Part shown: piece by piece, positions 2,322-9,243 of the stretch
Layout of the letters: each line of letters starts with the position of its first letter
Position numbering within the stretch: the first letter of the stretch is position 1
DNA from: Candidatus Omnitrophota bacterium
GTDB taxonomy: Bacteria; Omnitrophota; Gorgyraeia; JABMRG01; JAFGKX01
NCBI GenBank assembly: GCA_020354945.1
Contig: CP070655.1
Span: 817,529 to 827,710 of the forward strand
Reading direction: 5' to 3'
DNA: 10,182 nt
Notes under the pieces: generated by a model
Seen by the model: only the letters and a program-made list of their open reading frames with translations
What the model was told of the DNA's origin: nothing
Database searches by the model: none
Position numbers and translations under genes: made by a program

Positions 2322-2345
2322 TGGCACGCCCAAGAGGATTCGAAC
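2322..2345 (-). repeat. Exact 24-bp duplication of the tRNA-Arg 3' end (T-loop to CCA)
   Basis: tggcacgcccaagaggattcgaac at 2322-2345 is identical to 2608-2631, 286 bp away. Confidence 0.95.
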
Positions 2346-2590
2346 TGTCGTGTCGTGGCTTCCGTTTACTTCGTAAGCCTCAGCCACTCACTCCATAAAA
2401 AGAAACCCTGATAGTTTCTTTTTAATGTTTATCTTCCTTCCGCATAGTAGAAACTTTGCGCCGATAGGGGAAAACAATCTTTTTCCGGCCGCCTCACCTT
2501 CTCGGCGGCGCTCGTAGTTTGTTCGCACTTATTCGTGCGAACACTCGCCCCTAAAACCCCTTTTTAGGTTCTCATCCCAAGGACTTGCCA
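2322..2590 (-). ncRNA. Putative tRNA-linked structured RNA/repeat element (RtT-like architecture)
   Basis: At least 7 consecutive hairpins, imperfectly complementary termini, a tRNA-identical CCA end, and no credible ORF. Confidence 0.5.
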
Positions 2591-2607
2591 AATTTTCAAA
2601 GAAAATT

Positions 2608-2684
2608 TGGCACGCCCAAGAGGATTCGAACCTCTAACCCCTGGTTCCGTAGACCAGTGCTCTATCCAATTGAGCTATGGGCGC
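2608..2684 (-). tRNA. tRNA-Arg(ACG), 77 nt, encoded CCA
   Basis: Reverse complement GCGCCCATAGCTCAATTGGATAGAGCA CTGGT CT ACG GA ACCAG GGGTT AGAGG TTCGAAT CCTCT TGGGCGT G CCA folds into a full cloverleaf. Confidence 0.97.
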
Positions 2685-2838: not shown

Positions 2839-3306
2839 ATGAAAAAAGATGAAATCTATATGAAAGAGGCGCTGAAGGAGGCGGTTAAAGCACAACAAAA
2901 GGACGAAGTCCCTATTGGCTGCGTAATTGTTCATAAAGACAGAATTATTGCGCGGGCCCATAATCAGGTAGAGACTTTAAAAGACCCCACTGCCCATGCG
3001 GAGATGATAGCCATAACTCAAGCAGCAGCGGGTTTAAAAAGTAAATGGTTGCAGGGCGCAACGGTTTATGTTACAATTGAGCCCTGCATAATGTGCACCG
3101 GCGCATTAATTCTTGCAAGAATCAAGCAATTAGTTTTTGGCGCAAAAGACCCTAAAACAGGAGCATGTGGTTCTGTTTTTGATATACCTAAAGAAAAAAA
3201 TCTCAATCACAGATTCAAGATAAAATCGGGCATGATGAAAGAAGACTGCGCTTCTCTTTTAAGCGGGTTCTTTAAGAAAAAGCGAAAACTTACGCTTAAA
3301 ACTTAA
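2839..3306 (+). CDS. tadA: tRNA-specific adenosine-34 deaminase
   Basis: 155 aa with EVPIG, DPTAHAE, EPCIMC zinc motif, and GAKDPKTGACGS. Confidence 0.93.
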   Translation: MKKDEIYMKEALKEAVKAQQKDEVPIGCVIVHKDRIIARAHNQVETLKDPTAHAEMIAITQAAAGLKSKWLQGATVYVTIEPCIMCTGALILARIKQLVFGAKDPKTGACGSVFDIPKEKNLNHRFKIKSGMMKEDCASLLSGFFKKKRKLTLKT

Positions 3307-8247: not shown

Positions 8248-9180
8248 ATGGCTGTTAATTTAAAAGAACTGTCAAAAATGCCGCAAAGGTTCTGCGGGGG
8301 CCATAGGCTTTGTTCTGGCTGCGGCGCCTCCATTATTGTAAGGCAACTTCTTTTGGGGACTCAAGACCCGGTTGTAGTTGTTTGCGCAACAGGCTGCCTT
8401 GAAGTTGCAACAACCATATATCCTTATACCGCATGGGAAGTTCCTTTTATGCATAATGCCTTTGAAAATTCTGCTTCGACTATAAGCGGAATTGAAACCG
8501 CATACCGGGCCTTGAAGAAAAAAGGAAAGATAAAAAAGAATATAAAATTCCTCGCACTCGGCGGCGATGGCGGCACCTACGACATCGGGTTCCAGGCATT
8601 ATCAGGAGCCCTTGAAAGAGGCCATAATTTTGTATATGCCTGCTATGACAACTCCGCCTACATGAATACAGGGATTCAACGCTCAGGTGCGACACCCACA
8701 GGTGCATCTACGACAACAGCGCCTGCTGGAAAAGCAAGTTATGGAAAACCGCAGAGACGGAAAGACCTTACTGCTATTTGCGCTGCTCATAATATTCCTT
8801 ATGTAGCGCAGGCTTCAATTTCGCACTGGAAAGATTTAATAGAAAAATCCCAAAAAGCATTTGCAGTAGAAGGGCCGGCATTTATAAATATTTTGTCTAT
8901 GTGCCATAGAGGCTGGCGTTTTCCTCAAGCAGATACCGTAAAAATTGCAAAGCTTTCAGTCGAAACTTGCTTCTGGCCAATCTACGAGATAGAAAACGGC
9001 GAAAAATTAACCATAAATTATAAACCAAAAGAGAAAAAACCTATAACCGAATTTTTAAAAGCCCAGGGCAGGTTCAAGCATATATTTAAACCCGGCAATG
9101 AAGAAATTTTAAAAGATATTCAAGCCCAGGTCGACCACGATTGGGGCCTGCTCCTTAAAAAAGAAGAATGCTCAAAGTAA
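8248..9180 (+). CDS. porB: Pyruvate/2-oxoacid:ferredoxin oxidoreductase beta subunit (TPP-binding)
   Basis: GHRLCSGCG, TGCLEV, and TPP motif GGDGGTYDIG...YDN.AYMNTG.QRS. Confidence 0.94.
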   Translation: MAVNLKELSKMPQRFCGGHRLCSGCGASIIVRQLLLGTQDPVVVVCATGCLEVATTIYPYTAWEVPFMHNAFENSASTISGIETAYRALKKKGKIKKNIKFLALGGDGGTYDIGFQALSGALERGHNFVYACYDNSAYMNTGIQRSGATPTGASTTTAPAGKASYGKPQRRKDLTAICAAHNIPYVAQASISHWKDLIEKSQKAFAVEGPAFINILSMCHRGWRFPQADTVKIAKLSVETCFWPIYEIENGEKLTINYKPKEKKPITEFLKAQGRFKHIFKPGNEEILKDIQAQVDHDWGLLLKKEECSK

Positions 9181-9243
9181 AATGGGGACTGTCCCGTCCT
9201 TTCTTTAGTTTGCTGACGAAGGATAGGGCCTGTCCCCATTTTA
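9178..9243. repeat. Long imperfect inverted repeat, REP-like (GGGGAC-W-G motif); may double as the por terminator
   Basis: taaaatggggac (9178-9189) pairs perfectly with gtccccatttta (9232-9243). The stem continues imperfectly via ccc/ggg and tcctt/aagga. Confidence 0.7.

Follow-up and report, generated by a model that had tools for sequence, protein, structure and literature searches.

A dispersed family of small ORF-less elements at tRNA gene 3' ends in Candidatus Omnitrophota

A structured unit behind a tRNA-Arg(ACG) gene

The window, i.e. the whole 10,182-nt stretch of DNA analyzed here, derives from a Candidatus Omnitrophota genome (G000) and carries an intact tRNA-Arg(ACG) gene on the minus strand at 2608..2684 (ARAGORN; Rfam tRNA, 66.3 bits). 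The segment abutting its 3' end, 2322-2607, is a complete member of a family of small, dispersed elements without ORFs that occurs in this phylum. A repeat search of the window places TGGCACGCCCAAGAGGATTCGAAC at 2322-2345 and again at 2608-2631 with an identity of 24/24: the proximal copy (2608-2631, minus strand) is the last 24 nt of the tRNA gene itself, and the distal copy (2322..2345, minus strand) reproduces the tRNA 3' end from G53 of the T arm through CCA. An initial annotation, made from the sequence alone, had already recorded this exact T-loop-to-CCA copy, and the comparison bears it out.

Read on the minus (tRNA-sense) strand, on which all of the features below lie, the unit shows a five-part plan: a variable spacer, an arm complementary to the T arm, a core of ~145 nt, a two-strand 3' motif and the tail copy ending in CCA. 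The spacer (2591..2607), directly 3' of the CCA, is by sequence and fold an A/T hairpin (AATTTTC TTT GAAAATT); its sequence differs among units, with a terminator-like hairpin in several relatives. It is followed by the left arm (2567..2590), recognized from sequence, fold and a duplex test as a degenerate inverted copy of the tRNA 3' end. The T-loop part of this arm is GATGAGAACC, so that pairing with the 3' copy yields a tandem G.A/A.G mismatch, and an arm of the form GAGAACC or TCGAACC is present in most family units.

The conserved core was delineated with a covariance model (R1) which, like the covariation alignment used below, was built on 38 cores; it matches 2373..2580 with 103.1 bits (E 1e-32), the window copy carrying a 69-nt insertion relative to the model. 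The core opens with purine tract 1 (AAAAAGGGG, 2557..2565), which in the alignment is the mirror image of the 5' strand of hairpin 1 and a candidate third strand of a first triplex. A linker (2552-2556) leads to hairpin 1 itself (GGGG...CCCC, 2467..2551; defined by covariation and R1), here interrupted by a nested 61-nt module (2487..2547) with two hairpins, which the alignment and its repeat copies identify as a separate small repeat. Conserved alignment columns then mark a near-invariant TATCGGCG followed by a variable hairpin 2 (2441..2466). Next comes a near-invariant GAAGGAA with purine tract 2 (2426..2440), aligned as the mirror of the hairpin 4 5' strand and the candidate third strand of a second triplex, and then the covarying hairpin 4 (2396..2425), with a stem of 11-12 bp and the conserved loop (T/C)ATCAGG. 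Comparison of copies defines a 3' module (2346..2394) composed of GGAGTGAG, a hairpin and CGACACGAC; its two-strand motif, GAGYGAG / CGAC, is circularly permuted in other copies, where it appears as a hairpin loop, GAACGAAGTGA. This motif may correspond to a K-turn or tandem-GA motif. A hammerhead-like reading of GAGTGAG...CGAC was dropped, as the core positions misfit by eye and no Rfam ribozyme family matched.

The ORF list of the window contains no frame of at least 50 aa overlapping 2322-2607, and the integrase matches of G000 lie elsewhere in the genome, in agreement with the initial annotation, which saw no credible ORF or integrase. In an Rfam cmscan of the whole window at E<=1, tRNA is the only family on 2322-2607, apart from weak, chance-level overlapping rows for mir-5350 and rivX. 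A consensus scan of 2150-2900 returned no terminator-like site and placed its sole promoter-like site at 2768-2740 on the minus strand, upstream of the tRNA.

Distribution, tail copies and persistence of the family

R1 matches 33 of the 151 sampled genomes of the phylum, with six copies in G000. The related loci (designated by L-numbers) belong to Candidatus Omnitrophota, as fits the initial impression of a lineage that is not enterobacterial; the core pattern has 0 matches in viral contigs. Thirty-six of the 53 distinct cores have a tRNA gene within 300 nt, and all 36 are on the strand of the tRNA: a same-strand tRNA is found within this distance upstream of 33/53 cores and downstream of 3/53, and an opposite-strand one in 0. 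A further 11/53 have no tRNA within 300 nt, and the ends of these 11 differ. Copies were found at 19 tRNA species overall. Replication shows no strand bias in G000, where 3/6 copies are co-oriented (by a noisy cumulative GC skew with its minimum at 880 kb and maximum at 260 kb). In the literature searched, including passages on Omnitrophota, no such family is described.

Copies at other tRNAs with matching termini, which the initial annotation had proposed to look for, do occur: 25 units, distributed over 17 tRNA species, finish in a match of 12 or more positions to the final 14 nt of their own tRNA (14/14 in 22 units, 13/14 in 2 and 12/14 in 1), and in a second set, found by the model alone, 6/9 units end in the tail of their own tRNA. 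On its right side the duplicate invariably stops at the CCA end, and the left end falls in every unit in a cloverleaf loop or at position 1. It is in the T loop in most units, the others being in the anticodon arm (2 units), the variable loop (1) or at position 1 of the full tRNA (2). Thus, the tRNA-Pro(GGG) units L014 and L087 have a 40-nt copy beginning at a second GGTTCA motif in the anticodon arm, L128 has a 33-nt copy from the variable loop, and L019 and L133 adjoin position 1 of the full tRNA. Duplication past the CCA was not found (4.5/14 identities vs 3.9/14 for non-cognate pairs, with two tandem cases left out), although it would be expected of a simple staggered-cut duplication that includes the trailer. 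Across the tail copies of 24 units there are 0 mismatches in the last 12 nt and 46 in the next 12, a count biased by the choice of these units for a tail match of at least 12/14; the mismatch-free last 12 nt suggests selection on the CCA end, an RNA-like feature. The tail copy also follows the T-stem changes of its own tRNA (CCTGC in L102 vs CCAGC in L088), and in L102 the 5' strands of acceptor and T stem recur in the left arm, which makes a full minihelix. Terminator-like hairpins that have T runs stand between the tRNA and the element in L017, L018, L088, L105, L100 and L050, and in L017, L018, L105 and L100 such a hairpin follows both the proximal and the distal tails.

In the congener G001 an identical tRNA-Arg stands immediately before the ortholog of the VanZ-like gene; the same site is therefore empty, a state that the initial annotation had proposed to look for in relatives, although this may reflect loss rather than a site that was never filled. 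A possible parallel is seen at tRNA-Gly(CCC), where the distal copy of G000 has the T-stem strand CTCGT, which is the working one in G001, and the outgroup G003 has the proximal type of G000, a distribution that looks like deletion between repeats in G001. The latter genome also has larger inserts bounded by tRNA tail copies. Among contigs of four DNA runs, in their covered parts, no joint across 2322-2607 (an empty allele) was seen; in two DNA runs contig joints skip 2484-2547, with short sides of 23-24 nt. One relative's contig runs from the VanZ-like gene into the element.

Tandem arrays occur in L012, L019 and L082. The nested 61-nt module has three copies in G000, namely that of the window, one at 1020888-1020958 (100% over 71 nt) and one at 197318-197378 (93%) that sits inside an ORF, and is missing from the other tRNA-linked copies of that genome. 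Family copies within a genome are only 72-86% alike and their nearest neighbors are often in other genomes, some of them at the same tRNA: the tRNA-Lys(TTT) units of L102 and L088 are 95% alike and those of L050 and L105 88%. This argues against a recent burst and for long vertical residence, which would fit a kept, useful RNA as well. We read the family as mobile or formerly mobile; the copies at 19 tRNA species, the empty G001 site, the arrays and the nesting all support the initial suggestion of a non-autonomous, tRNA-targeting mobile element. Since the same core sits at many tRNAs, the unit is not simply the decayed end of one integrase-bearing island.

Fold, covariation and candidate triplex modules

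The minus (tRNA-sense) strand of the unit folds better than its dinucleotide shuffles, with -102.7 kcal/mol against -76.8 +/- 4.8 for 200 of them (z -5.4; 0/200 as good); the plus strand gives a z of -6.5. All stems listed in the initial annotation recur in the minus-strand fold, but the family alignment favors a purine tract with linker over a hairpin at 2550-2568, and the stems at 2488-2509 and 2520-2543 belong to the separate nested 61-nt module. In the minimum-energy fold the left arm (2567-2590) pairs with the 3' tail copy, as had been proposed for this opposite-orientation copy. The predicted duplex of the left arm with its own 3' copy has -25.8 kcal/mol, compared with a mean of -16.1 and a best of -24.0 for the 3' copies of the other 23 units. 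Across the family, the best duplex partner of the left arm is its own tail copy in 7/24 units, with arm extraction imperfect in ~7/24; against the acceptor part alone, the cognate is no better than non-cognates (1/25).

Covariation among homologs, which the initial annotation had named as a check, is present in two hairpins. In the 38-core alignment 97.9% of cells are paired, both sides change in 13/24 pairs, and 0/500 shuffles reach the observed values, while slid registers attain at most 71% pairing. Both-side changes affect 5/7 pairs of hairpin 1 and 8/13 pairs of hairpin 4, the latter with 99% of cells paired, and the core loops are invariant throughout the class. A manual tally from the pair table gives 13 G.U-type pairs vs 5 A.C, an excess that mildly favors the tRNA strand without separating RNA from DNA.

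Both covarying hairpins are accompanied by a mirror-image purine tract that changes in step with them, following the rule of the purine-motif triple helix. Thus, among the 38 cores, the column triplet 111/154/176 reads G,G,C in 28/38 and A,A,T in 10/38, 39/49/73 reads G,G,C in 26 and A,A,T in 8, 35/53/69 reads G,G,C in 16 and A,A,T in 15, and 108/157/173 reads A,A,T in 17, G,G,C in 11 and T,A,T in 8. The mirror registers have identities of 281/304 and 275/304, as against at most 228 and 186 at offsets of 1-3. This three-way covariation points to two putative purine-motif triplex modules inside the element. By sequence, and with the above register control, the tracts obey the antiparallel three-tract rule (A.A-T / G.G-C / T.A-T) given in passages of Holder et al. 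2015 (PMC4666352). The same passages give the purine-motif triplets as A(T).AT and G.GC, their third strand running antiparallel, state that they 'cannot form in RNA', and describe intrastrand triplex repeats in bacteria (Holder et al. 2015, PMC4666352). As reported there, then, the code followed by the family counts against an RNA fold of the tRNA strand.

A precedent for such modules is presented by the BoxC / PIT / TMECO repeats, which in those passages are likewise dispersed and intergenic, with a reverse-Hoogsteen purine tract, a purine strand and a pyrimidine strand as three tracts obeying A.A-T, G.G-C and T.A-T, and are tied to genome rearrangement (Holder et al. 2015, PMC4666352), as the family is here. 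TMECO is presented there as a single 9-nt G/C-rich class II motif with the pyrimidine strand first (PMC4666352), whereas the family has two A/G-mixed class I motifs, with the third strand first, in a 145-nt core with invariant loops. The TMECO pattern of a C-rich stem first and two 9-nt G-rich stems is accordingly absent from the core, in which the order is third, purine and pyrimidine strand. The word 'tRNA' occurs 0 times in Holder et al. 2015 (PMC4666352), and the passages drawn on here describe neither a tRNA-gene link nor a tail duplication.

Known systems, rival explanations and wider meaning

The closest likeness in boundary design is to the RtT repeats of the E. coli tyrT-tyrV operon and their rtT RNA (rttR; Rfam RF00391), reportedly described by Bosl and Kersten in 1991. 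These are known at one tRNA operon of enterobacteria. The motif that the initial annotation ascribed to them is correct: GGATGAGAA occurs exactly, with one copy per unit in the three 178-bp units that follow tyrV in E. coli K-12, and with 5 matches in the locus at <=1 mismatch (0/200 shuffles reach 5). Both RtT and the Omnitrophota family stand behind a tRNA gene and on its strand, form tandem arrays, and close each unit with a T-loop-to-CCA tail copy, 19 nt long in E. coli and 24 nt long in the window. Both RtT and the window unit (2567-2590) also have an inverted T-arm copy in which GAGAA replaces TCGAA, with GGATGAGAA in each, although some family members carry TCGAACC instead. Thus, the proposed analogy fares better than anticipated, extending to position, tail copy, the GA-for-TC inverted T-arm copy and arrays, but not to the core, the bodies having no detectable homology: in the Rfam check that the initial annotation had proposed, RF00391 does not match the window at E<=1, and R1 has no match on the E. 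coli locus better than E 0.72. The family further differs in its 19 tRNA species, its phylum, its presence away from tRNAs and its two candidate triplex-type modules, RtT having been compared on boundary design and core only.

Other classes of small repeats fit less well. REP/REPIN and IS200/IS605-type elements, which are moved as single strands by Y1 (HUH) transposases without target duplication or tRNA tail copies, are similarly hairpin-rich, ORF-less, dispersed and orientation-specific, but the window unit has a 24-nt duplication. G000 has one Y1_Tnp (PF01797) match, in a 234-aa frame, and no family repeats were seen flanking it by eye in the 1.8 kb around the gene; Y1_Tnp is present in 36/41 relatives, G000 included. 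The window unit also lacks the terminal inverted repeats and flanking 2-10 bp duplication of a MITE of a DDE transposon: its duplicate measures 24 nt (in relatives as much as 40 nt), and between the proximal copy and the left arm there is a variable spacer. A nearer parallel is offered by G003, in which two GIY-YIG cassettes and one ORF-less derivative begin right after the CCA and finish in a tail copy, like the window unit, with a small GIY-YIG ORF (~90 aa) between tRNA and tail copy in L031 and L071. The window unit has no ORF and another body. According to passages of Chenal et al. 2025 (PMC11893778), the Ssn proteins, which are small GIY-YIG nucleases, cut ssDNA site-specifically, are associated with hairpin repeats, and act on folded single-stranded repeat DNA near their own genes. 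Small GIY-YIG frames occur in 40/41 relatives; G000 has none, its single PF01541 match being a 514-aa frame.

The account that we favor, at about even confidence, is that of a non-autonomous element which folds as single-stranded DNA, inserts at tRNA gene 3' ends and duplicates the tail. The unit would lodge at the tRNA gene 3' end, on the strand of the tRNA, and be followed by a duplicate of that tail; because the tail is duplicated 3' of the unit, the tRNA gene would remain intact. As the mirror purine tracts covary by the antiparallel purine-motif code, we infer that the selected fold is that of single-stranded DNA of the tRNA-sense strand. The machinery would recognize a tRNA-shaped fold and not plain duplex, and the left arm, being complementary to the T arm, may help to find the T loop or to hold it. 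Candidate enzymes present in the class are the small GIY-YIG nucleases, Y1 (HUH) transposases and tRNA-adjacent tyrosine integrases. Inserted copies would last long, the tail copy continuing to track its tRNA. Against this account stand the want of any enzyme linked to the element, the 72-86% likeness within a genome with a vertical residence that would suit a useful RNA too, the chance that the G001 site is empty by loss, and a left arm whose specificity for its own tRNA is confined to some units (7/24).

A host-kept non-coding RNA, in line with the co-transcribed, CCA-terminated tRNA mimic of the initial annotation's other reading, is possible though less probable: it would arise from the tRNA transcript by co-transcription or read-through and be excised by tRNA-processing enzymes, with the E. 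coli rtT RNA as analog. The left arm and tail copy would close an acceptor/T-arm-like minihelix with a free NCCA end, providing tRNA-like processing and stability, and each paralog would serve or sense its own tRNA. The uniform strand of the tRNA-adjacent cores (36/36), the class-wide invariance of the core loops, the persistence of same-tRNA copies across genera, the tail copies that track T-stem changes (L102 CCTGC vs L088 CCAGC) and have no mismatch in their last 12 nt (in a selection-biased set of 24), and the full minihelix of L102 are all as such an RNA would have them. Further, a small RNA is annotated at the rttR locus that follows tyrV in E. coli, and no obvious mobilizing enzyme adjoins any G000 copy. 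Yet terminator-like T-run hairpins separate tRNA and element in several units (the six loci listed above), 11/53 cores have no nearby tRNA and different ends, the congener's site is empty, arrays and nested insertions exist, and the third-strand code fits a purine motif that, in the passages cited, is reported not to form in RNA (PMC4666352).

Tyrosine-integrase elements offer a rather improbable alternative, in which the units are scars or miniature hitch-hikers of elements that enter tRNA genes at the T loop or the anticodon loop: the proximal tail, spacer and terminator would have come with the element, the distal tail would be the displaced original, and the conserved core would be the non-coding attP-side part, used in trans. 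Such elements in tRNA genes, with their attL/attR repeats, were reportedly described by Williams in 2002, and their classical att pattern is said to be a direct repeat from T loop or anticodon arm to tRNA end; the window unit shares this repeat, the intact tRNA on one side and a possible empty site. The terminator-like hairpins behind both tails in four loci are as expected if the element brings tail and terminator, G001 has the larger tail-bounded inserts, and integrases of ~360 aa lie ~130 nt upstream of tRNAs in 5/7 loci examined, one of them, in G015, beside tRNA-Arg(ACG) and a core. However, no integrase lies inside any repeat-bounded unit seen, and G000, whose three Phage_integrase (PF00589) matches (195701, 233099 and 833999) are all outside the unit, offers no more than two recombinases of Xer size and, at a distance of 14 kb, a 130-aa fragment. 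Unlike an integrase island, the window unit has 286 bp and a structured, covarying core, and one core family at 19 tRNA species would need its own matching tail at each. Strong structural covariation and a triplex code are not expected of an att arm, and the units adjoining position 1 of the full tRNA (L019, L133) misfit a T-loop crossover. Less probable still is a retro-copy, in which a reverse transcriptase, having copied a tRNA or fragment from the CCA end, would switch to the element RNA at its 3' end, the cDNA then recombining at the tRNA gene. The joined tRNA pieces do share their starts with natural tRNA fragments (position 1, anticodon loop or T loop) and run to CCA, but RVT_1 has no match in G000 and occurs in 3/12 relatives with core-covering matches (G001, G014, G015) vs 9/29 others. 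The start of the tRNA-Pro(GGG) copy (G37/U38) coincides with that second GGTTCA motif, so that sequence or structure, not a modification stop, explains it; a reading of the copy starts as reverse-transcription stops was dropped, RVT_1 being absent from G000 and not associated with core-bearing genomes.

The observation in the initial annotation is thus confirmed and its interpretation partly supported, and none of the refuting conditions that it had set (no homologs or covariation, folding no better than shuffles, the decayed end of an integrase island) is borne out. Beyond the single-stranded DNA element favored above, a speculative and rather doubtful extension is that window-type units, the tRNA-tail GIY-YIG cassettes and E. 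coli RtT are products of one undescribed mode of moving DNA: triplex-folded single-stranded DNA docking by the T-arm-complementary arm, with a structure-specific nuclease and tail-duplicating repair. The dock would be a tRNA-shaped target, i.e. the folded sense strand of a tRNA gene or the tRNA itself; a structure-specific single-strand nuclease would cut at the CCA end and in a cloverleaf loop, and repair would duplicate the tail, so that an essential gene could be targeted without harm.

tRNA genes are classic landing sites of mobile DNA, and the known mechanism needs an integrase and a tail fitted to one tRNA; here one small ORF-less family stands behind 19 tRNA species with the right tail each time. 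To our knowledge, the RtT repeat has been without explanation since the 1980s-90s, and the family provides dozens of independent, covarying examples from which the rules of an RtT-like boundary design can be read: a right end fixed at CCA, a left end in a cloverleaf loop, and a T-arm-complementary arm with tandem G.A. The triplex modules, if physically confirmed, would be rare evidence of an intrastrand DNA triplex under selection and would point to a single-stranded DNA stage. For annotation, units of the family account in Omnitrophota genomes for many 'pseudo-tRNA 3' halves' and for structured intergenic regions that lack an assignment.

The element behind tRNA-Arg(ACG) and its relatives

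The minus-strand tRNA-Arg(ACG) gene (2608-2684) is adjoined by the element (2322-2607, same strand), which terminates at 2322-2345 in an exact second copy of the last 24 nt of the tRNA (repeat family D7), as the initial annotation had stated. An ORF scan found no frame of at least 50 aa between the two tail copies, in keeping with its judgment that no credible ORF is present. The element folds better than its shuffles: the 286-nt tRNA-sense strand reaches -102.7 kcal/mol versus -76.8 +/- 4.8 in 200 shuffles (z -5.4), and the opposite strand z -6.5. All the stems proposed by eye recur in the computed tRNA-sense fold, in which the two ends of the element are paired with each other, and reading of the sequence shows the proposed degenerate inverted copy at 2567-2590 to be real.

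The element proved to belong to a family, which makes the observation more general than the sequence alone could show. Five more relatives are present in the same 1.14-Mb genome. Two immediately follow tRNA-Gly(CCC) and tRNA-Met, oriented to the tRNA as the Arg copy is to its own, and each terminates in the tail of its own tRNA and not in that of tRNA-Arg. Three lie away from tRNAs and differ at their ends, with a palindrome on the 5' side and, on the 3' side, a hairpin whose loop reads GAACGNNGTGA. A search of species-representative genomes recovered the pattern of the core, the conserved part of about 145 nt, at 29 loci, labeled Candidatus Omnitrophota (18), 'uncultured Planctomycetia' (9), Candidatus Kappaea (1) and 'bacterium' (1); among viral contigs it was found in none. 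A covariance model built from 38 cores matches the window with 103 bits (E 1e-32) and has hits in 33 of the 151 genomes of a phylum-wide sample; 30 of these belong to the class of the window and 3 to other classes. A literature search of main texts found no description of this Omnitrophota family.

A separate two-hairpin module of 61 nt, nested in hairpin 1, accounts for the greater length of the Arg copy. This module (loop of the second hairpin GAGAAGGTGA) has three copies in the genome, at window 2487-2547 and at genome positions 1020888-1020958 and 197318-197378. Two of them interrupt two core elements at one and the same position and are 100% identical over 71 nt; the third lies, apparently in frame, within a putative Kdo-transferase (WaaA)-like ORF recognized by eye, a position that recalls the Rickettsia palindromic elements.

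Several further features mark the neighborhood. Upstream of tRNA-Arg, 2686-2742 holds a hairpin (AATTTTAC TTCG GTAAAATT) with GTAAGT-rich short repeats; it has further occurrences upstream of or close to other tRNAs of the genome (808474, 720031) and many in the congener G001, and may be a tRNA promoter-region repeat. The tadA gene (2839-3306; tRNA adenosine deaminase fold, Pfam matches MafB19-deam and dCMP_cyt_deam_1) adjoins tRNA-Arg(ACG), the gene of its expected substrate; this pair, followed by tRNA-Ser(GCT), is kept in most relatives searched, with differing tRNA orientation. A 23-nt unit, TACCGTTTACGGTTTTGTTCGGA, is tandemly repeated at 1864-1909 with 91% identity between the DUF1846 and VanZ-like genes (D9), and a 31-nt inverted repeat (I1; 74% complementary, 4-nt loop) occupies 9178-9243 just upstream of tRNA-Asn.

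Fold of the core and a triplex-like code

The core comprises two hairpins with many compensatory changes (RNAalifold). Across the 38 cores 97.9% of cells pair and 13 of the 24 pairs show changes in both partners (89 cells), covariation values that none of 500 shuffles reached; sliding the pairing partner by 1-3 columns lowers pairing to 50-71%. Between the hairpins lie the near-invariant stretches TATCGGCG, GAAGGAA and a loop (C/T)ATCAGG. The 3' motif, GAGYGAG ... CGAC, is split around a hairpin in some copies and joined as a hairpin loop in others; motifs built from two strands typically show circular permutation of this kind.

A purine tract precedes each hairpin and mirrors the purine strand of that hairpin, and the three columns involved covary. 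Among the 38 sequences, the column triplet 111/154/176 reads G,G,C in 28 and A,A,T in 10, 39/49/73 in 26 and 8, and 35/53/69 in 16 and 15, respectively, with T,A,T in none of these; 108/157/173 reads G,G,C in 11, A,A,T in 17 and T,A,T in 8. The mirror register gives 281/304 and 275/304 identities, versus 228 and 186 in the best shifted register, and the window's own copy fits the code, one T.A-T included. Being a mirror repeat, such a tract cannot replace the purine strand in Watson-Crick pairing with the pyrimidine strand. According to Holder et al. (2015), G.G-C, A.A-T and T.A-T are the triplets of the purine motif, which has an antiparallel third strand and does not form in RNA, and a triplex of the pyrimidine motif is possible on the complementary strand; in the latter case the T,A,T instances would be misfits. 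Because of this misfit and the reported absence of purine-motif triplexes from RNA, we lean, on the covariation and this one literature statement, to the tRNA-sense strand as single-stranded DNA being the selected fold. The triplex modules here are similar in principle to the known intrastrand triplex repeats BoxC, PIT and TMECO and differ from them in class and sequence.

Linkage to tRNA genes and boundaries of the tail copy

When 53 distinct cores were examined for the nearest tRNA within 300 nt, it lay upstream on the same strand for 33, downstream on the same strand for 3 and on the opposite strand for none; 11 had no tRNA within that distance and 6 were at a locus edge. Behind 17 tRNA species, 25 distinct units terminate in the last 14 nt of their own tRNA (14/14 in 22, 13/14 in 2, 12/14 in 1), a count outside which stand two further tRNA-adjacent cores, L090, cut by a contig end, and L050, where a GIY-YIG cassette leaves 17 nt of the tail copy. 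A second set came from the covariance model alone; in it, six of nine tRNA-linked cores (one a repeat of a first-set locus) have a tail match of at least 13/14, adding tRNA-Asp and tRNA-Ser; the remaining three have decayed or different ends.

In most units the tail copy begins with G53 of the T arm. In the two tRNA-Pro(GGG) units it spans 40 nt, beginning where the anticodon arm has a second GGTTCA motif, and at locus L128 it begins in the variable loop; at L019 and L133 the 3' motif of the element abuts position 1 of a complete tRNA, and at L131, another exception, a copy of the next tRNA's positions 1-20 follows it. Duplication never extends past CCA (4.5/14 identities versus 3.9 in non-cognate pairs, two tandem cases left out); the right end of the copy is therefore fixed at the mature 3' end. 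With the left end in a cloverleaf loop or at position 1, these boundaries suggest something that recognizes the folded tRNA shape, as RNA or single-stranded DNA.

Whatever the starting point of the tail copy, the left arm complements its first 10-14 nt, the arm of L014 fitting the anticodon-arm start of its copy. In the window and many units its T-loop part reads GAGAACC, not TCGAACC, and the closing helix thus contains a tandem G.A/A.G mismatch. Past the T arm, only some units (the window, L102, L017, L107) show clear complementarity, the cognate arm/tail duplex ranks first of 24 in 7 units, and the acceptor strand alone gives no cognate signal against the left arm; the arm is thus mostly a generic T-arm complement. 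The likeness to the E. coli RtT repeats drawn by the initial annotation extends to this boundary design: in K-12 each 178-bp unit behind tyrV terminates in the last 19 nt of tRNA-Tyr and holds GGGGAAGGATGAGAAGC, the reverse complement of the T arm and acceptor start with the same GA-for-TC change, whereas the body is unrelated to that of the Omnitrophota element.

Site history, other cargo and interpretation

An empty site was found in G001, where tRNA-Arg is identical and the VanZ-like gene (1893-2300 in the window) has its ortholog directly after it, with neither element nor duplicate. Among nine relatives in which tRNA-Arg(ACG) was found, one (G015) has a core together with an exact 24-nt copy, one (G011) tandem units of another body, one (G003) a GIY-YIG cassette, and six nothing. 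Absence at a site can reflect loss: at tRNA-Gly(CCC), the distal copy in the window's genome has the T-stem strand that works in G001, while G003 matches the proximal copy of the window's genome, for which a deletion between the repeats in G001 is the best explanation. Behind this tRNA G001 has an insert of about 970 nt where the window's genome holds the element (L111 1315-2280), with a putative NYN/LabA-like ORF recognized by eye, two tandem repeats of about 70 nt and no tail copy.

Copies within one genome are 72-86% alike; the nearest neighbor of a copy often belongs to another genome and in some cases sits at the same tRNA, where the tail copy tracks the T-stem change of that tRNA. The elements are thus long-standing residents whose tail copy is kept like the tRNA, by gene conversion or selection. 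Near the junction, tail-copy mismatches in 24 units number 46 at positions 13-24 from the end and 0 at 1-12, a contrast overstated by the choice of these units for a tail match of at least 12/14, a filter that most tRNA-linked cores nonetheless pass.

The enzyme data tie no enzyme to the core family. The window's genome has no RVT_1 match and no small GIY-YIG frame; it encodes two Xer-size recombinases plus a fragment and one Y1 transposase. Among 41 relatives, small GIY-YIG frames are nearly universal and Y1_Tnp is present in 36. A tRNA is present in 14 of 30 GIY-YIG loci; in 11 it lies immediately upstream, and among these a tail copy follows the ORF in the G003 case alone. In 5 of 7 loci, genes for tyrosine integrases of about 357-363 aa end some 130 nt upstream of a tRNA on the same strand (L150 Pro, L151 Val, L152 Met, L153 Arg, L156 Arg), which is not the side on which an integrase usually neighbors a tRNA.

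G003 has three tail cassettes, L031 2300-2720 (minus), L071 1408-1830 (plus) and an ORF-less one at L152 3912-4076 (plus), with conserved ends starting right after CCA. They are about 380 nt long with a sole ORF for a GIY-YIG protein of about 90 aa (Pfam GIY-YIG, 1.9e-15), the ORF-less derivative being about 145 nt; each lies at a different tRNA and terminates in a 21-nt copy of its tail, and the L031 repeat also takes in about 55 nt of trailer. Another trailer module, behind the CCA of several G003 tRNAs (L152 3691-3760; L156 842-910; L113 1575-1635), consists of (T/C)GAACC, a hairpin and GGTTC(A/G)TGGC, a T-loop-like motif and its complement. Downstream of tRNA-Arg(ACG) in G011 (L033), at least two tandem 243-nt units of different body each end in a 21/24 tail copy; the T arm recurs in exact inverted form close to the 5' end, and GAACGAAGTGAG stands close to the 3' end.

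Origin as a retro-copy is very improbable: besides the lack of an RVT_1 match in the window's genome, RVT_1 occurs in 3 of 12 core-bearing relatives versus 9 of 29 others and is not associated with the core. That the copies are integrase-type scars or hitch-hikers seems unlikely. A kept, co-transcribed RNA with a tRNA-like end, its expression putative, is a possibility that we hold tentatively. To a non-autonomous element folded as single-stranded DNA, which targets the tRNA tail and duplicates it, we assign roughly even prospects; such an element would contain a triplex and be moved by a mobilizing enzyme, both putative. Insertion at tRNA tails with duplication of the tail is itself a common event in the class, and its cargo varies.
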